A stretch of 60,747 nt of DNA from Enterobacteria phage JenK1. The stretch lies in sequence record NC_029021.1; one strand, written 5' to 3'. A program made the position numbers and the translations under genes. A model generated the notes under the pieces. The model was given only the letters and a program-made list of their open reading frames with translations. It ran no database searches and was not told where the DNA came from. Positions 1 to 56,241 of this stretch are shown piece by piece; positions within the stretch are counted from its first letter, which is position 1, and the number at the start of each line of letters is the position of its first letter.

Positions 1-552
1 ATGGTAAAGCCTATTCTACCTTGGACACGTAGCATTGAATACGAAGCCGATCTCACTAAAGAAGAGATGGCTATACGTGACTCTGTCGTTGAAGAATATC
101 TGTTCGATTATGATTGGGTTAATGCGTGTAAACGTGTAGGCATGAGCTCCGCAATGGCGTTTGATTATGCTAAACGTTTTCAGGATGATAGCTATTGCCA
201 AAGACGAATTAAAGAACTTCAACAGCAGAAAGCAAGAAGTGCTCAACGTGACAGCAAATATGAAATAGAACAAGAGCGCCAGCGCATCATTGAAGGTCTT
301 AGATTTGAATCCACTTATCGTGGACCTGGATCTTCTCAAGCTGCTCGTGTTGCTGCATATAAACAATTATGTAGCATCTTTGGATTTGAAGCTCCTAAGC
401 AACAGAAGATGGATGTTGGTGTATCTACTGGTGTTATGCTGGTTCCTATGGTTGGTTCTATGGATGATTGGGAAAGAGTTGCTGGGGAGTCTCAGACTAA
501 GCTGCAAGAGGATACTTTAAATGGACTCAATGATTCAGACACCGTCCACTAA
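1..552 (+). CDS. putative terminase small subunit
   Basis: 183-aa ORF starting at position 1, directly upstream of and overlapping the large terminase ORF; assigned by synteny only. An AGGAG RBS sits 7 nt before the window end, positioned for this ATG if the sequence is circular. Confidence 0.4.
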   Translation: MVKPILPWTRSIEYEADLTKEEMAIRDSVVEEYLFDYDWVNACKRVGMSSAMAFDYAKRFQDDSYCQRRIKELQQQKARSAQRDSKYEIEQERQRIIEGLRFESTYRGPGSSQAARVAAYKQLCSIFGFEAPKQQKMDVGVSTGVMLVPMVGSMDDWERVAGESQTKLQEDTLNGLNDSDTVH

Positions 553-3789: not shown

Positions 3790-4668
3790 ATGAACAAATA
3801 TCACATTCATCTAGCGGTAGCTTATTCCGCTGGCTTCTTCCAGTCCATGCCTCGTTTTGGTGCATTGGAACTTGAATATACTTCTGAAGATGAAATCCCG
3901 GAAAACGCGCGTGAGTATTATTCCCAAGAAGGCGATAAGTGGATCCTCACTGGTGTAAAGGGTGGTGGCAAACAGAATATTGACAGGTTGCAATCTGCAC
4001 TTGAAAAAGAACGCAACGATCATAAAGCGGTCAAGAGTAAGCTAAGTAAGCTGAACGGACGTGATATTGACGAACTCTTGCAGCGCGACGCTGAATATGA
4101 AGAGCTTAAACTGCGTGCGGATAAAGTTGATGATGAAAAGTTGGAGCAAATCATTAACGTACGAATCCGTAACAAGTTGACTCCGCTTGAGCGTGAACGT
4201 GACGAGCTGAAAAACAAACTTTCTACCTATGAGAAGCAAGTAGAAGAGCTGACCACAAAAGAGAAGAACCGCATCGTTAAGACCGCTCTCAGCAAGGCTG
4301 CAATGTCTGCTAAAGTGATCACTGAAGCTATTGACGACGTGGAACTGATTGGCTCTCGTTTGTTTGAGCTCACTGAAGACGGTCAGGTTGTGACACGCGA
4401 CGGTGTGGGTGTAACTCCTGGGATCACCCCAGAAATGTGGTTACAGGACATCCAGGATAAGAAACCTCACTGGTTCCCTGGAAACGTTGGCGGTGGTGCT
4501 GGTGGCTCACGTACCCCTGGCGCTGCTGGTAAGAACCCGTGGAGTGCCGACGGTTGGAACCTTACTGAGCAGGGTAAAATTCTTCGTGAAAATCCTGAAA
4601 AAGCAGGCCGTCTGGCAGCCATGGCTGGCGTGGACTTGAAGCGTCCAGTACGTCCAGTTAAAAAATAA
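3790..4668 (+). CDS. scaffolding protein (putative)
   Basis: K/E-rich coiled-coil-like protein with Gly-rich C-terminal region, between portal and capsid genes. ATG at 3790 has a GGAG RBS; the ORF-track start at 3763 is a GTG just after the terminator. Confidence 0.5.
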   Translation: MNKYHIHLAVAYSAGFFQSMPRFGALELEYTSEDEIPENAREYYSQEGDKWILTGVKGGGKQNIDRLQSALEKERNDHKAVKSKLSKLNGRDIDELLQRDAEYEELKLRADKVDDEKLEQIINVRIRNKLTPLERERDELKNKLSTYEKQVEELTTKEKNRIVKTALSKAAMSAKVITEAIDDVELIGSRLFELTEDGQVVTRDGVGVTPGITPEMWLQDIQDKKPHWFPGNVGGGAGGSRTPGAAGKNPWSADGWNLTEQGKILRENPEKAGRLAAMAGVDLKRPVRPVKK

Positions 4669-24099: not shown

Positions 24100-24813
24100 A
24101 TGTCTGACATGACTCTTATTCCGGGCGGTTTGGGTGGCGGTTTCGGTGGTGAAGCTGGCGCAGCGGCCGTTGGCGGTGGTATCGGTGGCTTAATCGGTTC
24201 GTGGATCGGAAATGGTTGGGGTGGCAATGTCGGTTGGGGTGGTCGCGGCGGTTGGGGTGGTGGTGTCGGTGAAGTCCAGGCTTCCGTAGATACTAACGCA
24301 ATTCTGCAAGCCATCAATAACGGCAACCTGCAAAACATCCAGGGCCAGAACGGTACTAACCTGACTGTCGAACGTTCTGCGGCGTCCACCTTCAACGGTA
24401 TTACTCAACAGAACACTCAGAACATGCTGGCTTCCGTTCAGGGCTTTGCTGGTCTGAACACTGAAATTCGCACTGGTACAGCGTCTGTCGTAGCTGCTGT
24501 CAATGCTGCGGATGTAAACGCGTTGAACCGTTCCTTCCAGGCTCAGTTAGCTGCTCAGGAATGTTGCTGCGAGACCAACCTGAACATCGAACGTCAAGCG
24601 AACGAAACCCGTGGCCTGATCCGCGATCAGTTTGCTCAGTCTCAGGCTGTTCTGATCTGTGATCTGAAATCTCAGTTGCAGGAAGCTCGCTTTGCGAACT
24701 CCCAGCTTCATCAGACCGCTCAGATCGATTGTAAGATCAATCAGGTTGCACAGCTCGTTAACTTCAAACTGCCAACCCCTCCGACTCCGCCGACTGGTTG
24801 TTGTGGTTGCTAA
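24100..24813 (+). CDS. Gly-rich N-terminal / Cys-containing hypothetical protein
   Basis: 237 aa; N-terminal 60 aa dominated by GG/GW repeats, Q/N-rich middle, CCC and C-terminal GCCGC; strong host-like codon bias; bracketed by terminators. Confidence 0.6.
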   Translation: MSDMTLIPGGLGGGFGGEAGAAAVGGGIGGLIGSWIGNGWGGNVGWGGRGGWGGGVGEVQASVDTNAILQAINNGNLQNIQGQNGTNLTVERSAASTFNGITQQNTQNMLASVQGFAGLNTEIRTGTASVVAAVNAADVNALNRSFQAQLAAQECCCETNLNIERQANETRGLIRDQFAQSQAVLICDLKSQLQEARFANSQLHQTAQIDCKINQVAQLVNFKLPTPPTPPTGCCGC

Positions 24814-28116: not shown

Positions 28117-29105
28117 AGACGAAATCCTACAATTACCCCACGTAGATTTTCACCATAAAAAATAATAGGAGTTGAAAGACCCCTTTCGTCCTTTTCATTG
28201 AAACGCGAGGCATCCCAGTCCGTTGCAAGTCCTTTCAACTGCATAATAAGATCTATATTATACACGCCAATTGACTTGGATTCACGGAACATTGCACTAG
28301 CACCATCCAACTCGTTGTAATGTGTGCGTACAACACCGTTTTCCATGTAAATACGCCCATCCCGCTCACAGAACGGTTTTATCTTTTCTAGGCAATTAAA
28401 AAGCTCAGTATCAAGCGTATAAACGTCGGACCCCTTTTCTGTGCGCTCAATTATCTTATCAATGTTAGGCCACTTTAATTCCAGCAATTGTGTACGCAAC
28501 CAGCAACCGTCTTCGTAGTGAAATGTCATACTGGTATCCGTACATTGAATTCTTACTGGTGGCTTTTTAATACGCAATAATTCTTTGATGGCCATACGTG
28601 GCACAACACAATCTACAGGGAATACAGCACCGAACCAATATTGTATAATACTAGCGTTGTTGGTCGCGTACATGCTGCCCTGTTTTACCAGCACGCCGCA
28701 AGACCACGGGCGGGAAGCATCGTCGCTTATAAATGGCGTTACGCGGCTTAAACCGTTGAGAAAAAGCTGACCGTCTATTTCGTGAATTGTTCCTTCTGGC
28801 TCTACGTGTGCAGTTGGTTTTTGAAGAGTATCCACACTAACCTTAAAGCCACCAGACTTAATGCTCAACTTACCGTTCGCCAACATTGTCATCTGTACAG
28901 CTTCATCACATGCTGCAATAGCTTTCAACATTGGTTCAGCTTTAGGTGTGCAGTCAATATTCAGCGGCACTGGACTACACAATGAAATAGTTCCGTTGAA
29001 CCCGCGCACAGTACCATCAACAATACGGAAGTGAGTTAAACCTTCCTGAAGTTCTTTCTTAGCTACAGAACCCTGAACAAACTTTAAAGCATCAAGTAAA
29101 TCCAT
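28113..29105 (-). CDS. hypothetical protein between DpdA and DNA polymerase
   Basis: 330-aa ORF, translationally coupled to polymerase; no motif recognised. Confidence 0.5.
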   Translation of the reverse strand: MDLLDALKFVQGSVAKKELQEGLTHFRIVDGTVRGFNGTISLCSPVPLNIDCTPKAEPMLKAIAACDEAVQMTMLANGKLSIKSGGFKVSVDTLQKPTAHVEPEGTIHEIDGQLFLNGLSRVTPFISDDASRPWSCGVLVKQGSMYATNNASIIQYWFGAVFPVDCVVPRMAIKELLRIKKPPVRIQCTDTSMTFHYEDGCWLRTQLLELKWPNIDKIIERTEKGSDVYTLDTELFNCLEKIKPFCERDGRIYMENGVVRTHYNELDGASAMFRESKSIGVYNIDLIMQLKGLATDWDASRFNEKDERGLSTPIIFYGENLRGVIVGFRL

Positions 29106-51821: not shown

Positions 51822-52442
51822 TCACGCTCCAAACTGATCAATGTATTCAATGAGCTCTTGCAATTCTTTCTGTAACTGCACATTACCACTATTATTCGTC
51901 TGAAGTCTAACGAGGCACTCCTTGATATGTGCAATGTGGTTAGCACCCATCCGACGCTTCTGTACATCACACCAGCGAACAACACCATCTTCAATATATG
52001 CACGACGCGCTTTACCACGTGGGTATCGCAGCGGCCGAACTTCACACTTATCGCCAACCCACTTAAAGCCCAGGATCATAACAGCGTTACCTTCCGTATC
52101 AGGACACACGTCAAAACAACTGGTGAACCCTTTACTGTGCATATACTCGTCGAGCGGAATCACACAATCCACCTCTAACAACCAGTACCCGAAGTAAATG
52201 TCAACAGTAAACATCATCCCCAACATCGGAGCCGACCAGCACATATACATCCGCCCGTCATCCAACTTCTTGACCGCATTCGGCCGCAACACGAGGCCAG
52301 CCTCCTTCCACGCTTTGACCACATTACTTAGGCTTTCATTATGCTGCTCTAATATGGCTACCGCTTTGGCGTACATTTCTTCGTTGTAACCGAACATTTC
52401 TTGTACGTGTGCGTGTGTTATTTCAATTTTACGATTGCGCAT
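51822..52442 (-). CDS. hypothetical early protein (first gene of long leftward operon)
   Basis: 206-aa ORF preceded by repeat-rich control region. Confidence 0.55.
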   Translation of the reverse strand: MRNRKIEITHAHVQEMFGYNEEMYAKAVAILEQHNESLSNVVKAWKEAGLVLRPNAVKKLDDGRMYMCWSAPMLGMMFTVDIYFGYWLLEVDCVIPLDEYMHSKGFTSCFDVCPDTEGNAVMILGFKWVGDKCEVRPLRYPRGKARRAYIEDGVVRWCDVQKRRMGANHIAHIKECLVRLQTNNSGNVQLQKELQELIEYIDQFGA

Positions 52443-52505
52443 AACCTCACCCTTGATGATAATAAATCGATTAATTTTGAAATTCAGTTGCCAAGTTTTA
52501 ATTTA

Positions 52506-52576
52506 TGCGAAGTTTTTGCTATTTGCAACTGTGATATTTTGCGGTGTTTGTATATGCAAAGTTTTTGCTTTTGCAA
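52506..52576. promoter_or_regulatory. two operator-like palindromic repeats upstream of leftward operon
   Basis: tgcgaagtttttgctatttgcaa (52506-52528) and tgcaaagtttttgcttttgcaa (52555-52576); each carries TGCAAA/TTTGCA inverted half-sites around palindromic TTGCAA. Confidence 0.4.
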
Positions 52577-52605
52577 AAATTACAACAGTCTGAAGGTGAG
52601 AAATT

Positions 52606-52651
52606 GTACATTTATAAAGATCGGTGAAAAAATGCACAATTTATAAAGACC
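52606..52651. repeat. direct repeats of TTTATAAAGA motif
   Basis: tttataaaga at 52611-52620 and 52640-52649; inverted copy tctttataaa at 52789-52798. Confidence 0.5.
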
Positions 52652-53039
52652 CCGTAATACATAAAACGGCGAAGCGAAGTGTATGAAAAATAATGGAAAA
52701 TTTTGAGGATTGGGAGGTTTGTAGTGATTTATATTATTTATAAAGGGGTCTCGTGGGGGTCGTCAGTAGACAACTCAAAAACAAAAAATCTTTATAAAAT
52801 TTATATAAATACACACATATACACATTTTTACCTTATTTTTCATGCACTTACCTCCTTTCATTTCGTATATTAAGCGACAATATACGAGCAATATAAGAA
52901 ATATTTGTTGCGCAACGACTGTGTGTTTTCTAACCAATCGAAAGATTGCTTTATATACGTCCGCGCGTCTAACACAAAAGAAAAGTAGATTGCAAGCGAT
53001 TTTTGCTGAGGTAACTCTCGAAGTGAAAGCGATTTGCGA

Positions 53040-53420
53040 GTTTGAAATTTTGTAGCCCGAAAACGATTCTATTTTATGGTATAAATGTCGGATTTTTCGG
53101 TGAAAGGTGGCTTTTCGGTGAGGTTGGGTGGCTGGAATCGGGGTAGCGGGTAGACCATAAAGCGAAAATAGCCGCGAAAACGGGGCACGCAGCGCGATTA
53201 ACTGGTTGGATCGGTGTAAGGGTGGCGGTGAGGGGCGAAAATGCCGCAAAATCGCGTACAGGGAAGCAGGGAGTGGATCACTGTAAGGGCGTGTAAGGCG
53301 ACTGAATTGGAGTCAATGGTAATGTACGGAAGAGGGATTCAGGTTCTTAGAGCGCGAATGGTGGAGTTATGGGTGAGGAATATGTGGTCAGCAGGGTAAC
53401 GCGGGAGGTTATGCAGGTAC
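53040..53420. repeat. purine-rich non-coding tract with tandem and dispersed short repeats
   Basis: ttttcggtga(a/g)(a/g)gtgg twice (53094-53131), gcgaaaat(a)gccgc(g)aaaa twice (53162-53183, 53234-53255), recurring GGTGAGG / GTAAGG motifs; no convincing ORF. Confidence 0.5.
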
Positions 53421-53457
53421 AAAAACGAAAGCGCCCCGTTGGACTTCAACAGGGCGC
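53421..53457 (-). terminator. intrinsic terminator ending leftward early operon
   Basis: Minus strand stem GCGCCC / GGGCGC with 15-nt loop, then TTTCGTTTTT. Confidence 0.5.
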
Positions 53458-53480
53458 GGATTATATAATGCAGTTAGAAG

Positions 53481-53729
53481 TTATTTACAAGTTAATAGTA
53501 CCGCCCAGGTATTATCTGGAAGCGTACCAACTCCAAGTATTTTAAGTTGAAGCGACTTGTTCTGCATGTTGTAATTGTCCAGTAACTCCTGGGCCGCGGC
53601 AGCGGCGTTCGCTTCACCGTTCAGGTTGTAGTCGTTTGCAGTTATTGCGCACATACCGAGGCCAACCGCTTTGAAGCGCATACCTTTGGATTGAGTCGGT
53701 GCTAGTGCTTTGACATGGATAGCGTTCAT
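53481..53729 (-). CDS. hypothetical small protein, paralog family B (copy 2)
   Basis: 82 aa; alignable with 54260-54505 product (shared AAA.EL...G.LPD pattern). Confidence 0.55.
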   Translation of the reverse strand: MNAIHVKALAPTQSKGMRFKAVGLGMCAITANDYNLNGEANAAAAAQELLDNYNMQNKSLQLKILGVGTLPDNTWAVLLTCK

Positions 53730-53758
53730 ATTATTTATCTCCGTTACAATTTGAAAGG

Positions 53759-54016
53759 TTAGCAGCTTTTTAACAGGTTAATGAAGCCCACCAGCGTGGA
53801 CGCGGTTGCAACCAGGCGGCCCATAGTATGCAGTTCCGCGTAAACTTTACCGTCGTTGAACACTGTTAAATAAACGTTAAGACCATTGCAACGGACGCGA
53901 TATTTGCGCGAGTTATTATTGAAAGTTTCTAATTCCGCAGTGATAGTCGCAAGATTAGCTATACGCTTGCCGATAATGCGGCGAGTGATAGTGGACTGGT
54001 TTAATACTGTAGACAT
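53759..54016 (-). CDS. hypothetical small protein, paralog family A (copy 2)
   Basis: 85 aa; N-terminus STITRRIIGKRI matches SMITKRIIGKRL of 55331-55636 product; AGGA RBS. Confidence 0.55.
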   Translation of the reverse strand: MSTVLNQSTITRRIIGKRIANLATITAELETFNNNSRKYRVRCNGLNVYLTVFNDGKVYAELHTMGRLVATASTLVGFINLLKSC

Positions 54017-54053
54017 AATCTTTTCCTCTGTTAACTATGCGAAGTGCATATTA

Positions 54054-54076
54054 TTGCCCACTGTTACTATGGGCAA
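54054..54076 (-). promoter_or_regulatory. palindromic element overlapping candidate promoter (copy 1)
   Basis: ttgcccactgttactatgggcaa; on minus strand reads TTGCCC - 17 bp - TAATAT upstream of 53759-54016 gene. Confidence 0.4.
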
Positions 54077-54084
54077 TGTATATG

Positions 54085-54249
54085 TCACTCAGCGGACACA
54101 TATTCTAACGCTTCTGATAGTGTAGCGAAGTGACCATCACTCACCAGATTAATAGCGTACTCAAGTTGATCCCGGGTCAGGTTGCGAAACTTGTTACGGA
54201 TGTGATAGCAACGACCGCGATAAATAACCTGGAAATAATTGCGTTCCAT
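54085..54249 (-). CDS. hypothetical small protein
   Basis: 54 aa from internal ATG 54249 with GGGGA RBS (longer track ORF overlaps upstream gene). Confidence 0.35.
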   Translation of the reverse strand: MERNYFQVIYRGRCYHIRNKFRNLTRDQLEYAINLVSDGHFATLSEALEYVSAE

Positions 54250-54259
54250 AATTATCCCC

Positions 54260-54505
54260 TTATGCAACGATGAACGCGTAACCGCTTTGATCCGGGAGCT
54301 CACCACCAGCAACAATCTCAAACTCAACACCCGCTTTATCGTTGAACTTTTTGATAAGCTCTTCCGCTGCGGCGCGGTGGTTGCCGTAAACACCCAAATC
54401 GTCACGCCATGTGATAGTCAAGGAGCCGTTCCAGCCTGTTGCTTTTACGCGCGGGTCACGGGTGGCAGTCGGGTTGATGAATTTCGTGATGATAGCTTGA
54501 GCCAT
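54260..54505 (-). CDS. hypothetical small protein, paralog family B (copy 1)
   Basis: 81 aa; paralog of 53481-53729 product. Confidence 0.55.
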   Translation of the reverse strand: MAQAIITKFINPTATRDPRVKATGWNGSLTITWRDDLGVYGNHRAAAEELIKKFNDKAGVEFEIVAGGELPDQSGYAFIVA

Positions 54506-54510
54506 GATAA

Positions 54511-54729
54511 TTACTCCGGTAAAATTACAGTGACGTTAATATTTGCAATGCGAGCGCACTCGCGGAAACCTTTTACATAAGCATCCATTTCGTCATAGGA
54601 TGCGAATGTCACGTCCGGGACTGGTCCGTTGTTAATATTCACGCAATATTCGTGTTCGTCCAGGTCAACCCAGCAGTATAGAACTATAGTTTCCATATTA
54701 TTTACCCTCCGTATAGTAAAGACCCGCAA
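54511..54729 (-). CDS. hypothetical small protein
   Basis: 72-aa ORF (possibly starting at internal METIVLYC). Confidence 0.45.
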   Translation of the reverse strand: MRVFTIRRVNNMETIVLYCWVDLDEHEYCVNINNGPVPDVTFASYDEMDAYVKGFRECARIANINVTVILPE

Positions 54730-54774
54730 CTATTGGAGCTCCGAACACCAAGAAAGCTAATAAGTAGAACATAA

Positions 54775-55269
54775 TTAGTTACCCCCTTTATTATTGAGCC
54801 CGTTGAATTTACGCCATGCGTAGAATTCAATCGTTGCATTATTAATATTCCAACCATTAGCTTTCGCAAGGTCACGGACGTTACCAATAGTTGGCACACT
54901 ATCAGGTAACATATTATCCAGGGCATTCCAAACGTCTGCGCATTTACCTTTAATTGGGCGGCGGACCCCGTTGCGCGTTTCGCTGCGCGTTTTGCTCTTG
55001 GCGGGAGCGACCGGAGCTTGTTGTGTGGTCACTTCCACGACAGTCGCTTTATCAGCTTCAACCAGATCGTTAGCTGCCTTGTTAACCGCGCTTTCGCTGT
55101 ACCAGTAGCGGCCACCGTCTTCTTGCGGTTCCTGGTGAATAAAGCTATTAGCTGTCGCAGTGTCCACATCCAGAACCTTTTTTAAGGCACGGCGAGCGTT
55201 AGACATATTGGTGAAGAAGCGAGCATCTTTTGCTACGCGAGTGATAGTAACCATTGTGAATATCTCCAT
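54775..55269 (-). CDS. hypothetical protein
   Basis: 164 aa; N-terminal TITRVAKDA loosely resembles paralog family A; preceded by second copy of the palindromic element. Confidence 0.5.
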   Translation of the reverse strand: MEIFTMVTITRVAKDARFFTNMSNARRALKKVLDVDTATANSFIHQEPQEDGGRYWYSESAVNKAANDLVEADKATVVEVTTQQAPVAPAKSKTRSETRNGVRRPIKGKCADVWNALDNMLPDSVPTIGNVRDLAKANGWNINNATIEFYAWRKFNGLNNKGGN

Positions 55270-55296
55270 GTTGTTCTAGCGGATTGCTAGTGGGAG

Positions 55297-55317
55297 CCCA
55301 CTGTAACAATGGGCAAC
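55297..55317 (-). promoter_or_regulatory. palindromic element (copy 2)
   Basis: gcccactgtaacaatgggcaa; 19 of 21 nt identical to copy at 54056-54076. Confidence 0.4.
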
Positions 55318-55330
55318 CATTAGCACGCTA

Positions 55331-55636
55331 TTATTGTTGAATAGCTTTATCTATCATTGCGATGAAGCAGAACACAGACCAAAGGCTATTCGCTTGGCAT
55401 ACTGCGCGGCCGTACATTACAGCGTGAGAGCTAACAGTACCGTCCTCGTTAATGCGAATATATAACGGGGTGCTGGAATACTTTTCGTTGCCCGGGAGCA
55501 TTACTAAATACTCGTCGAAACCCCAATCCCCGTCGACTTTTTCCGCAGTAAGGCCCAGCTGATACAGGCGCTTGCCGATAATACGTTTGGTGATCATGGA
55601 CTGGGACATAGAACGCGGTAAGTAGATAATGGACAT
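55331..55636 (-). CDS. hypothetical small protein, paralog family A (copy 1)
   Basis: 101 aa; AAGGGAG RBS; paralog of 53759-54016 product. Confidence 0.55.
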   Translation of the reverse strand: MSIIYLPRSMSQSMITKRIIGKRLYQLGLTAEKVDGDWGFDEYLVMLPGNEKYSSTPLYIRINEDGTVSSHAVMYGRAVCQANSLWSVFCFIAMIDKAIQQ

Positions 55637-55821
55637 AATGCAATCTCCCTTCGGGTGAAGCGGGCGCGGAACCCGTGTCCCGCTTTAAAACCCCCTTTAC
55701 CCCACGCGTTTATAGTATGACAACAGGGTATCAGATGCAACTATTATCTGCATTATTTTAGAACTTTTTTAGTTGTGTTTCATAATAATAACATCCGGGA
55801 CTATACGGTAGATGGTGTGCC

Positions 55822-55890
55822 GGAAATACCAGGTAGCGCGAGTGTGCTGAAAATACCAGGTAACAGCACGCGCAGGAAATACCAGGTAGC
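55822..55890. repeat. three iteron-like direct repeats in divergent intergenic region
   Basis: ggaaataccaggtagc (55822-55837), gaaaataccaggtaac (55849-55864), ggaaataccaggtagc (55875-55890); spacing 27 and 26 bp; each contains CCAGG. Confidence 0.55.
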
Positions 55891-56241
55891 ACATACATAG
55901 ACAGCACATAGTGGGCAGGTGGATAGTAACAGATGTAATTATACTGGACGGTATAGTATAGTCATGTAATAGATAGCACACTAATCAAATAAAAAATAAT
56001 AACGCGTGTAACAATAAACAACGTTATAGTAGAGCGCATGACAGTCACATCACGTAACAATCACCTCACTGACGATCACGGGACGTTATAGTAACGCCGC
56101 GGGGCGGCTCTTAGATCTCTGCCAAGGATTCATCGTTTGTAGATTGTCTCGTCACTAGACACTTTATATCCTCACCTCACCTGCCCTATATTGTTCGTAT
56201 AAAGTTAATTCCGTATGTAAATACTCGAGAGGAGATCTGTT

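Follow-up and report, generated by a model that had tools for sequence, protein, structure and literature searches.

The classical packaging site is cos of phage lambda (cosQ-cosN-cosB), which gives 12-nt cohesive ends and no terminal repeats. Phage T7 has repeat arrays and the phiOL promoter, which Dunn and Studier reportedly described in 1983. For a T7 phagemid to be packaged, it must carry the terminal repeat together with an origin and a pac site (PMC13236587, citing Chung and Hinkle 1990). In Pseudomonas phage iggy, a related member of the Queuovirinae, direct terminal repeats of 1091 bp were mapped with Nanopore reads (PMC10484667). In phage T5, the inner boundary of the terminal repeat is occupied by 'Repeat Region 3', also called the injection stop signal, which is an untranslated region of 1.2 kb (Davison, bioRxiv 10.1101/866236).

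We compared with these systems a non-coding stretch of Enterobacteria phage JenK1 (NC_029021.1; the 60,747 nucleotides analysed are called the window hereafter). By its sequence, the phage is a 9g-like siphovirus (genus Nonagvirus, phage 9g group). The gene-free interval spans 1038 bp (52443-53480), from the start codon of a leftward gene (51822..52442) to the stop codon of another leftward gene (53481..53729). This stretch is probably a non-coding junction, composed of three modules, at the left boundary of a direct terminal repeat of about 3.37 kb, and it is a genuine control region of a familiar kind rather than a new class of element. Similar to the T5 region, it is untranslated and repeat-rich, appears to straddle the inner boundary of a long direct terminal repeat, and is more conserved than the neighbouring ORFs. 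The sizes are also close (1.04 kb here and 1.2 kb in T5), as are the extensions into unique DNA (294 bp and 270 bp, respectively), and the repeat of either phage contains an operon of small genes, most of them without a known function. However, the T5 genome of 122 kb has a 10-kb repeat, two-step transfer of DNA has been shown for T5, eight paired DnaA boxes of the T5 region contrast with none here, and the two regions share no sequence similarity.

Likeness to T7 and T3 consists in exact, sequence-defined repeats, short motifs clustered by the boundary, and an inward-facing promoter (a candidate here) a few hundred bp from the left end. On the other hand, T7 belongs to the podoviruses and encodes an RNA polymerase of its own, its repeat is non-coding and 160 bp long whereas that considered here has 3.4 kb and seven genes, and the motif sequences are unrelated. 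A partly two-fold-symmetric cleavage site, repeated protein-binding elements (putative here) and bent AT-rich DNA recall lambda cos, from which the locus differs by its terminal repeats and by the absence of an IHF consensus. Iggy and Seuratvirus ECP2304 belong to the same subfamily and have the same packaging style, and ECP2304 further has GCGAAGTTTTG boxes and a plus-strand TGGTATTAT element in common with this phage. Unlike in other Queuovirinae, a strongly G-rich tract is present in Nonagvirus.

Fourteen distinct Nonagvirus genomes (16 records) aligned across the whole stretch with DNA identities of 87.5-95%, and no DNA-level homologues of the stretch were found outside Nonagvirus. In both flanking genes the divergence at third codon positions was 0.16, compared with 0.035-0.081 in four blocks of the stretch, indicating that the non-coding stretch is under purifying selection.

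The probable left boundary of a terminal repeat

Evidence for the boundary comes from relatives. The genomes of phages HdSG1 and HdK1 are flanked by direct terminal repeats, 3363 bp long in the former and 3367 bp in the latter, whose two copies are exact (100% identity). Window position 52737 (TTTATAAAGGGG) corresponds to the first base of the HdSG1 record and 52740 (ATAAAGGGG) to that of the HdK1 record, and the right end of the repeat maps in both to 56110. The two records, which are products of one laboratory and one pipeline, were linearised where most reads stopped abruptly (PMC6563267). Position 56110 coincides to the base with the published read-start hotspot of phage 9g (position 28,243), which was reported for the right end only, with none at the left end and with reads crossing the hotspot. 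Since the left ends of the relatives lie inside 52443-53480, the non-coding stretch would straddle the terminal-repeat boundary, with the left-end position taken from these two relatives. The repeat is present in the window as a single copy without terminal redundancy, suggesting a collapsed assembly. The features around the boundary are as follows.

52737..56110, no strand: predicted direct terminal repeat, 3374 bp, from the HdSG1 and HdK1 repeats and the 9g hotspot
52595..52650, plus strand: a 28-29-bp unit (GGTGARAAAWTGYACA(A)TTTATAAAGAYC) present twice in tandem, with TTTATAAAGA at the end of each copy (period 28, 1.9 copies, 85% matches by Tandem Repeats Finder)
52737..52745, plus strand: third TTTATAAAG copy, putative left physical terminus of the packaged genome and left repeat boundary, from the HdSG1 and HdK1 record starts
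52737..52871, no strand: conserved AT-rich left-terminal block, 30% GC, with the lowest divergence in the region (0.035)

The initial annotation had listed three copies of TTTATAAAGA, one of them inverted, and an exact count gave the same result (plus strand at 52611 and 52640, inverted at 52789-52798). A further copy of the 9-mer TTTATAAAG, third in position order, starts at 52737 and brings the number of 9-mers to four. All four copies in the window lie within 52611-52798, at most 190 bp from the left terminus, with 0.84 copies expected; from the local AT-rich composition about 0.03 would be expected, and four were reached in none of 20,000 simulations. TTTATAAAG, which contains a palindrome, was unchanged in both tandem units in 18 of 18 genomes while the adjoining bases varied. 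Copies 1-3 were invariant in the 18 genomes, the fourth was mutated in 4 of them, and TTTATAAAGGGGTC at the left terminus was likewise invariant in all 18. The packaging site that had been offered as one option for this region is thus supported in a sharper form, the left end mapping to 52737/52740 inside a copy of TTTATAAAG. That first reading made no mention of a terminal repeat or a genome end.

Within the left-terminal block lie the inverted TTTATAAAG copy at 52790-52798, A/T tracts in rough phase, a 17-nt run of alternating pyrimidines and purines (52810-52826), and three invariant islands (52737-52750, 52757-52775 and 52783-52817). In Seuratvirus ECP2304, an exact repeat of 3695 bp has its left end in the syntenic non-coding gap of 829 bp, within a palindrome (GGAATAATTTATTCC) of a locally repeated motif. 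We suppose that in this second module (the terminus, about 52595-52871) the terminase or a partner protein would recognise the TTTATAAAG cluster, and that concatemeric DNA would be cut inside the third copy so that packaged DNA starts at 52737-52740. TTTATAAAG would then be a short, invariant candidate recognition motif for terminase. A motif shared by the left and right repeat junctions was not significant, with 12% of shuffles scoring as well, and there is thus no sign of one recognition sequence serving both cuts. The terminase of this phage matched weakly and only the generic Terminase_6N family; the small terminase subunit is placed at window 1-552.

The unique side and the question of an origin

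On the unique side, the following promoter-like and operator-like elements were found.

52443..52600, minus strand: promoter/operator-like region of the long leftward replication-gene operon, function predicted from sequence
52528..52500, minus strand: candidate sigma-70 promoter, TTGCAA-17-TAAATT, from hexamers and spacing
52576..52549, minus strand: candidate sigma-70 promoter, TTGCAA-16-TATACA, from hexamers and spacing
52630..52603, minus strand: candidate sigma-70 promoter, TTTTCA-16-TACAAT, from hexamers and spacing, just beyond 52443..52600
52489, 52506 and 52555 (span 52489..52567), plus strand: three TGC[C/G/A]AAGTTTT(TG) boxes, read as CAAAAACTTYGC on the minus strand

Two 22-bp imperfect palindromes around TTGCAA had been proposed here. 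Palindromic cores are indeed present but measure only 6 bp (TTGCAA, 52523-52528) and 10 bp (TTTTGCAAAA, 52569-52578), and just 6-7 of the 11 arm positions pair over the proposed extent. The better description is a 29-nt direct repeat in two copies of 79% identity (52495-52523 and 52544-52572), which correspond to the two promoter-like units. The -10 hexamers of the leftward candidates are weak (4-5 of 6 consensus matches), one of the three candidates passed the consensus scan, and that scan returned four sites in the region against 3.2 expected by chance. The boxes lie in or beside the spacers of the candidate promoters and are therefore operator-like, and no further exact copies of CAAAAACTTYGC-type boxes occur in the window. 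At the syntenic place in ECP2304, TGCGAAGTTTT and AAGTTTTTGC stand in tandem about 10 bp apart within DNA that is otherwise unalignable. A promoter/operator function of the unique side is plausible on these grounds. In this first module (52443 to about 52630), tandem host-type promoters would drive the leftward replication-gene operon, and the CAAAAACTTYGC boxes in their spacers would probably serve as operators for a phage regulator.

The same boxes could be read otherwise, namely as iterons for a neighbouring initiator, which would make the region or part of it a replication origin; an origin might also arise by R-loop priming, as in ColE1 and phage T4 origins, if transcription were driven rightward from TGGTATAAA over the G-skewed tract. 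We regard an origin as unlikely, and its function could coexist with that of a terminus. The tandem spacing of about 10 bp in the ECP2304 boxes is iteron-like, and the cumulative GC skew has its minimum at about 52-53 kb, where the leftward and rightward gene blocks diverge. Transcription direction changes at the same place, however, and fully confounds the switch in skew. An invariant extended -10-like element, common to Seuratviruses, followed by a non-template strand with a GC skew of +0.48 is the classic R-loop configuration, but the distal half of the tract is dispensable in phage JenP1. Lineages differ in the local repeat motif and in the gene that opens the adjacent operon, as in swappable initiator/origin cassettes, and a phage-encoded primase-helicase lies a few kb away. 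In the neighbouring 206-aa protein, on the other hand, no DNA-binding or initiator domain was detected. This protein is confined to the genus Nonagvirus, and its AlphaFold model (pLDDT 49) was too poor for a fold search. A Pfam search with nine neighbouring proteins matched only the primase-helicase (AEP and DUF3987); among the nine, the homologue of a 9g gene annotated as 'TetR family' had no Pfam match. Also against an origin, the DnaA box TTWTNCACA was absent from 52443-53480 (two occurrences in the whole window, with 7.95 expected), and a search of the region for IHF consensus sites found none. Repeated boxes and AT-rich DNA are present as candidate origin-type features.

The repeat side: rightward element, G-rich tract and terminator

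In the preferred reading as a repeat junction, the third module (52872-53480) would be an untranslated terminal leader with a swappable cassette, a rightward element, a G-skewed tract and a terminator. The leader had no match in 5,426 E. coli genomes, and a host origin is therefore unsupported. Its parts are listed below.

52872..52965, no strand: variable mosaic cassette with three alleles among relatives (divergence 0.277, from the alignment)
52966..53091, plus strand: conserved block (divergence 0.042) ending in the extended -10-like TGGTATAAA (53077-53085)
53092..53425, no strand: G-rich, purine-rich untranslated tract (GC skew +0.48, 66% purine, divergence 0.074-0.081)
53431..53457, minus strand: intrinsic terminator closing the leftward operon (seven small genes) of the terminal repeat (11-bp stem with 8 G-C pairs, then TTTCGTTTTT)

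No invariant island of the region is longer than 53048-53085 (38 nt), which stops exactly at TATAAA, and the pattern TGGTATWAW-N7-TTTTTSGG has a single occurrence in the window. Plus-strand TGGTATTAT elements were also found in the syntenic gap of two Seuratvirus lineages whose DNA is otherwise unalignable. By its sequence and placement, TGGTATAAA may accordingly be regarded as a candidate for a promoter that points rightward and inward, about 340 bp away from the left terminus. As for the terminator, it is annotated at the same place in HdSG1, HdK1 and SP8, and 53432-53460 is invariant in all relatives but JenP1.

The tract between them (53092-53425) is among the two most strand-skewed stretches of the window, which agrees with the strong purine bias noted initially, and its divergence is half the synonymous-site level. 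Tandem repeats had been reported for it as well, but Tandem Repeats Finder (minimum score 30) detected no array in 53040-53420. The repeats present are short, dispersed and direct; the best of them (53162-53182 and 53235-53254) is marginal, with 15 of 300 shuffles scoring as well. Read leftward from 53430 to 53040, the RNA would have 36% C and 14% G over 391 nt (C 142, G 53) with 85 YC dimers, which places it in the top 1% of C-minus-G windows in the window. Folding energies of the tract were no better than those of shuffled sequence on either strand (z -1.1 and -0.4), nor was the consensus fold of 16 sequences better than column-shuffled alignments (z -1.25 and -0.24). Alignment folds of four blocks on both strands gave z values of -2.1 to +1.9, with no signal beyond DNA palindromes; on both strands, it was the palindrome-rich unique side that gave the values near -2.

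Rho-dependent terminators with rut sites, such as lambda tR1, act through untranslated, C-rich, G-poor and poorly structured RNA. The leftward tract RNA has the composition of a rut site (untranslated RNA of at least 80 nt, C well above G, little structure) and lies directly after an operon, a likeness by composition only. Because this RNA is C-rich, G-poor and unstructured, a Rho-loading role is favoured, and the tract most likely would act as a Rho-loading back-up terminator or insulator between two transcription units. In the right-hand repeat copy and in concatemers, the third module would thus separate the repeat operon from the replication operon. JenP1, which is viable, has an HNH endonuclease gene in place of the tract from 53252 on and lacks the distal tract and the terminator. 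However, invariant islands of 24-38 nt are not normal for rut sites. Rho loading needs a composition rather than a particular sequence, whereas stretches of 24 nt within the tract do not vary, which hints at an additional sequence-specific role.

On the opposite strand, the rightward element might make a non-coding G-rich RNA of about 340-370 nt, working in trans or restraining the repeat's leftward operon as an antisense or convergent-transcription brake, although we find this improbable. The 38-nt invariant island ending at TGGTATAAA, the similar plus-strand elements in two Seuratvirus lineages within unalignable DNA, and the conservation of the tract above synonymous sites are consistent with such an RNA. 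In addition, the plus-strand hairpin at 53431-53457 has no U tail, so that rightward transcripts could run into the antisense of the gene at 53481-53729. Against it, the element has no -35, the distal half of the tract is missing in JenP1, and neither single-sequence nor 16-sequence folds exceeded their controls. The non-coding RNA offered as an option in the initial annotation found no backing as a structured RNA, since an Rfam covariance-model search of the non-coding stretch gave no match even at a permissive threshold (E<=1) and a tRNA/tmRNA scan of the stretch returned nothing. Two other explanations of the G-rich tract were discarded. There is no Chi site inside the tract, and 13 GGA motifs (manual count), considered for a CsrA sponge, are no more than composition predicts.

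Packaging mode and meaning of the repeat

Returning to the repeat junction, the unique genome lengths of HdSG1 and HdK1 differ by 460 bp, while their left ends are 3 nt apart and their right ends identical. A repeat length that stays constant despite this difference favours sequence-specific ends over headful packaging. Under the latter, a single pac-like cut would be made at 56110, about 52737 would mark the finish of the first headful, and the TTTATAAAG cluster would be unrelated to the ends. The single sharp hotspot at the right end of 9g, with reads crossing it, fits such a scheme. A headful ruler, however, would hold the total length constant instead, whereas the repeats are 3363 and 3367 bp with left ends at most 3 nt apart in the same invariant motif, and the same arrangement recurs in the record of a Seuratvirus from a different laboratory. 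Headful packaging is quite improbable for these reasons.

Long-read assemblers often leave overlapping contig ends, and the repeats of HdSG1, HdK1 and ECP2304 might likewise be assembly overlaps of circular or permuted genomes, with no physical end at this place. A literature search for Nonagvirus and Seuratvirus terminal repeats found, among the papers covered, nothing explicit beyond the 9g right-end hotspot, and the lack of explicit discussion for Nonagvirus would suit that explanation. We nevertheless hold it to be highly unlikely, because artefactual overlaps end arbitrarily while the two phages share both boundaries, the right one matching the independent 9g hotspot to the base, and because the record ends were set, according to their authors, at abrupt read stops.

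The initial claim of about 1 kb of non-coding DNA was borne out. When all ORFs of at least 30 aa were checked, none within 52443-53480 was intact across 13 Nonagvirus genomes, every candidate being broken in several of them. It is barely credible that one or more small protein-coding genes are hidden here, even though a 36-aa minus-strand ORF (52844..52737) has a perfect Shine-Dalgarno sequence, a 52-aa plus-strand ORF (53241-53399) has a strong ribosome-binding-like sequence upstream, and various annotators have each placed different small CDSs here. Of the 13 genomes, 7 have a frameshift or a truncation in the 36-aa ORF. The 52-aa ORF runs into a stop at codon 3 in 9g, contains frameshifts in both HdK1 and JenP2, and has been lost by deletion from JenP1. 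Neither ORF matches any PHROG family, and the CDS calls vary in frame and position between genomes.

With a repeat junction at this place, the start of the packaged chromosome would be fixed for 9g-like phages and could guide the linearisation of their genomes. Annotators would gain a linearisation point, since arbitrary cutting and a collapsed repeat characterise most records in the databases, probably this one as well. The module map also offers a testable early-control region for phages of the BASEL collection and for phage therapy work, and, given its likeness to T5, whose untranslated repeat region is still unexplained, the locus may provide a smaller system for asking what such regions do.

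By analogy with T5, the 3.4-kb repeat might even be a 'pre-early' module in a small siphovirus and the junction its gate, a DnaA-independent analogue of the T5 injection stop, a speculation to which we give very little probability. The right end would enter first, and an inward-facing promoter about 150 bp from it would express the seven small genes. DNA entry, transcription or both would then be held at the terminator, the C-rich tract and the repeat cluster until a repeat-encoded protein gave release. If this were true, TTTATAAAG, GGAATAAT and CCCTATA would be swappable recognition sites for that machinery. These repeat motifs are lineage-specific, TTTATAAAG occurring here, GGAATAAT in ECP2304 and CCCTATA in CAjan.

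Gene content and composition of the gap

The gene-free gap at 52443-53480 (1038 bp) is a real, selectively constrained control region, and the initial annotation did not recognise its central feature, the putative genome end described below. Genes were arranged rightward from ~56.5 kb, past the record start, to ~26 kb, and leftward between 52.4 and 26 kb, with an additional leftward block of seven small genes at 53.5-55.6 kb. The gap and its flanks aligned over their full length, with 87.5-95% DNA identity, to 14 distinct Nonagvirus genomes (16 records; phage 9g group, subfamily Queuovirinae), and no DNA-level match to them was found beyond Nonagvirus. The absence of coding genes, as initially annotated, was borne out across the whole tract: when 13 genomes were aligned and each candidate ORF was translated from the homologous start, no ORF was conserved, every candidate being truncated, frameshifted or deleted in several genomes. 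Note that small CDS calls in the gap vary between annotators of different genomes, some of whom called none. Neither a tRNA nor an Rfam match was found in the gap. Judged by mean pairwise divergence, the gap DNA is nonetheless under purifying selection.

Mean pairwise divergence in the gap and its flanking genes
52737-52871, conserved block: 0.035
52872-52965, variable cassette with three alleles: 0.277
52966-53091, conserved block: 0.042
53092-53425, G-rich tract: 0.074-0.081
Third codon positions of both flanking genes: 0.16

The 94-bp cassette, whose three alleles in relatives differ sharply, is set between two highly conserved blocks and looks like a recombination mosaic. Within 52734-52859, a minus-strand mini-ORF of 36 aa (52844..52737), behind a perfect Shine-Dalgarno sequence AAAGGAGGT that is itself conserved, is probably not a gene, as 7 of 13 relatives have a broken frame. 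Its stop codon (52736..52734) falls just beyond the terminal repeat and would be missing from the left-terminal copy. The leftward 206-aa gene adjoining the gap has a homologue in HdK1, a viable phage, that aligns in four segments and carries the annotation of two CDSs (L006, a stretch of the HdK1 record, 1503-2395), and may therefore be disrupted or rearranged there.

After the cassette comes a 38-nt island, invariant in 18 of 18 genomes, that ends in TGGTATAAA, a putative rightward extended -10-like element ~340 bp from the terminus. It is followed by the G-rich tract and then by an intrinsic terminator for leftward transcription (53457..53431). The purine-rich tract noted initially was recovered at 53092-53425 (GC skew +0.48, 66% purine) and is among the two most skewed stretches in the window, but the tandem repeats ascribed to it were not found, the best internal repeat being marginal. 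The sole stretch with a stronger G-over-C skew, 24118-24307, lies inside a plus-strand ORF (24100-24813) and is thus coding, presumably glycine-rich. Leftward RNA of the tract would be 36% C and 14% G, and unstructured. JenP1 has, in place of 53252-53480, an HNH homing endonuclease gene with a promoter of its own; the distal tract and the terminator are therefore dispensable. This gene (L014, from the JenP1 record, 2310-2914) has a strong promoter, TTGCTA-18-TATAAT with TG ahead, and HdK1 has a second HNH gene (L005 3536-4015) just beyond its right repeat boundary. Homing endonucleases seem to be drawn to repeat boundaries, and in T5 an HNH gene likewise splits Repeat Regions 1 and 2.

An origin of replication, based on iterons or on an R-loop that would start at the rightward element and extend over the G-skewed tract, could coexist with a terminus; we consider it improbable, given that the skew minimum at 52-53 kb, which favors it, is confounded with gene orientation, and that the gap has no DnaA boxes. 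These boxes (TTWTNCACA) are depleted over the whole window (2 versus 7.95 expected; at least 2 in 99 of 100 shuffles). A non-coding or antisense RNA transcribed rightward has a similarly low probability: the G-rich tract folded no better than shuffled sequence on either strand, and consensus folds of four blocks were not better than those of column-shuffled alignments.

The probable genome end and its motif cluster

The records of the Nonagviruses HdSG1 and HdK1 are ~4 kb longer than those of their relatives and carry exact direct terminal repeats of 3363 and 3367 bp, respectively. Their authors had placed the record ends at points where most reads broke off abruptly (PMC6563267). The first base of the HdSG1 record corresponds to window 52737 (TTTATAAAGGGG...) and that of the HdK1 record to 52740, and both records finish at the equivalent of 56110 (...GCGGGGCGGCTC). 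Kulikov et al. mapped a single read-start hotspot in 9g, at 28,243, and deduced that there is a terminal repeat, whose size they did not know (PMC4276943); the hotspot position aligns exactly to window 56110. We infer that the window holds one collapsed copy of the repeat at 52737-56110 (3374 bp) and, from the relatives' records, that the physical genome end lies inside the gap, at a conserved repeated palindrome. The terminal repeat is implicit in three database records, and no published description of it, its boundary motif or the gap region was found in the literature searched. Direct terminal repeats were determined experimentally in the related Queuovirinae phage iggy (PMC10484667).

Headful packaging is unlikely, because repeat length is constant in HdSG1 and HdK1 even though their unique parts differ by 460 bp, which argues for a left end defined by sequence rather than by a headful ruler. 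An assembly artefact is likewise unlikely, since the right ends of both records coincide exactly with the 9g hotspot.

The initially reported TTTATAAAGA repeats were present at 52611, 52640 and, inverted, 52789-52798, and their 9-mer TTTATAAAG has a further, fourth occurrence at 52737. These four copies are the only ones in 60.7 kb, whereas ~0.03 were expected from the local AT-rich composition, and none of 20,000 simulations reached four. Copies 1 and 2, which lie 126 and 97 bp outside the repeat, each close one of two tandem units of 28-29 bp, the terminus falls in copy 3, and copy 4 is inverted, 53 bp inside the repeat. Among 18 genomes, five of them metagenomic, copies 1-3 were invariant while adjoining bases varied; copy 4 was changed in four. 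As a perfect palindrome, TTTATAAA would be a suitable target for a symmetric nuclease. The TTTATAAAG cluster in concatemers would be recognised by the terminase, or by a protein acting with it, and cut in copy 3.

Conservation in the region is highest over the first 135 bp of the repeat, where there are roughly phased A/T tracts and a 17-nt run of alternating pyrimidines and purines. A comparison of the left and right repeat boundaries gave no significant similarity. Chi (GCTGGTGG) occurs at 4498, 16133, 19473, 51299, 53788 and 54303, five of the six copies being on the minus strand (1.24 copies expected; 0 of 100 shuffles reached 6). Those at 53788 and 54303 are found 1.05 and 1.57 kb into the left-hand terminal repeat copy and, by the Chi orientation rule, are oriented to stop RecBCD entering at the left terminus.

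Promoter- and operator-like sites

Three sigma-70-like arrangements lie upstream of the 206-aa gene, the first of the replication operon.

Sigma-70-like arrangements
52528..52500, minus strand, TTGCAA-17-TAAATT
52576..52549, minus strand, TTGCAA-16-TATACA
52630..52603, minus strand, TTTTCA-16-TACAAT

The 22-bp palindromes initially described around TTGCAA have palindromic cores of 6 and 10 bp, and a 29-nt direct repeat in two copies describes them better; TTGCAA is plausibly the -35 element of a duplicated promoter. The box CAAAAACTTYGC (minus strand) occurs within each spacer of the duplicated candidate promoter as well as at the first start site, a placement typical of an operator, and nowhere else in the window; we regard it as an operator-like candidate. 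Host RNA polymerase would start the replication operon at the tandem promoters under a box-binding regulator. In the right-hand repeat copy and in concatemers, the repeat's operon would be shielded from the replication operon by the terminator and by the C-rich untranslated RNA, the latter through Rho loading.

For the repeat's operon, the best promoter-like site (ATGACT-16-TATAAT, 55965..55938, minus strand) is inward-facing, ~150 bp inside the right end, and fits the proposal of the 9g authors that the right-hand (hotspot) end enters first (PMC4276943). It faces a rightward promoter-like site at 55757-55786, which by coordinate conversion matches the rightward promoter annotated in 9g.

Counterparts in other phages

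The gap resembles the T7 concatemer junction, where short repeats and packaging signals lie close to a terminal repeat. Packaging of T7 phagemids takes an origin, a pac site and the terminal repeat (PMC13236587). Phage T5 offers the nearest parallel in its Repeat Region 3, 1.2 kb of untranslated DNA laden with repeats, which crosses the inner terminal-repeat boundary by 270 bp, shows stronger conservation than the adjoining ORFs and is the presumed site of the injection stop signal (bioRxiv 10.1101/866236). Geometry and conservation pattern match; however, Repeat Region 3 is defined by paired DnaA boxes, which the gap lacks, and we therefore did not file it as a member of that family.

In Seuratviruses, the syntenic site was located via the widely shared primase-helicase.

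Syntenic gaps and their repeats
Window, 52443-53480: TTTATAAA, four copies
ECP2304, L024 2009-2837: GGAATAA, eight copies
CAjan, L026 1164-1793: CCCTATA, seven copies

The Seuratvirus ECP2304 has an exact 3695-bp terminal repeat, whose left end falls within a non-coding gap of 829 bp, bordered on one side by the start of the primase operon and on the other by the end of a leftward small-gene operon, inside a palindrome, GGAATAATTTATTCC, of a motif present eight times nearby. Its unique side carries tandem GCGAAGTTTTG boxes, the same box as in the window's gap and the only sequence of at least 10 nt common to both gaps at a consistent position. CAjan has a third version, rich in (A)CCCTATA, and a plus-strand TGGTATWAW element occurs in all three. 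The gap architecture is thus conserved and the repeat motif lineage-specific, as expected of a recognition site co-evolving with its binding protein. Each of the three lineages also has a different first gene in the adjacent operon (206, 71 and 260 aa), which suggests that binding site and binding protein form a swappable pair. In the GenBank record of ECP2304 (L025 1-2781), the left repeat copy has no annotated genes and the right copy has them, an annotation gap rather than biology.
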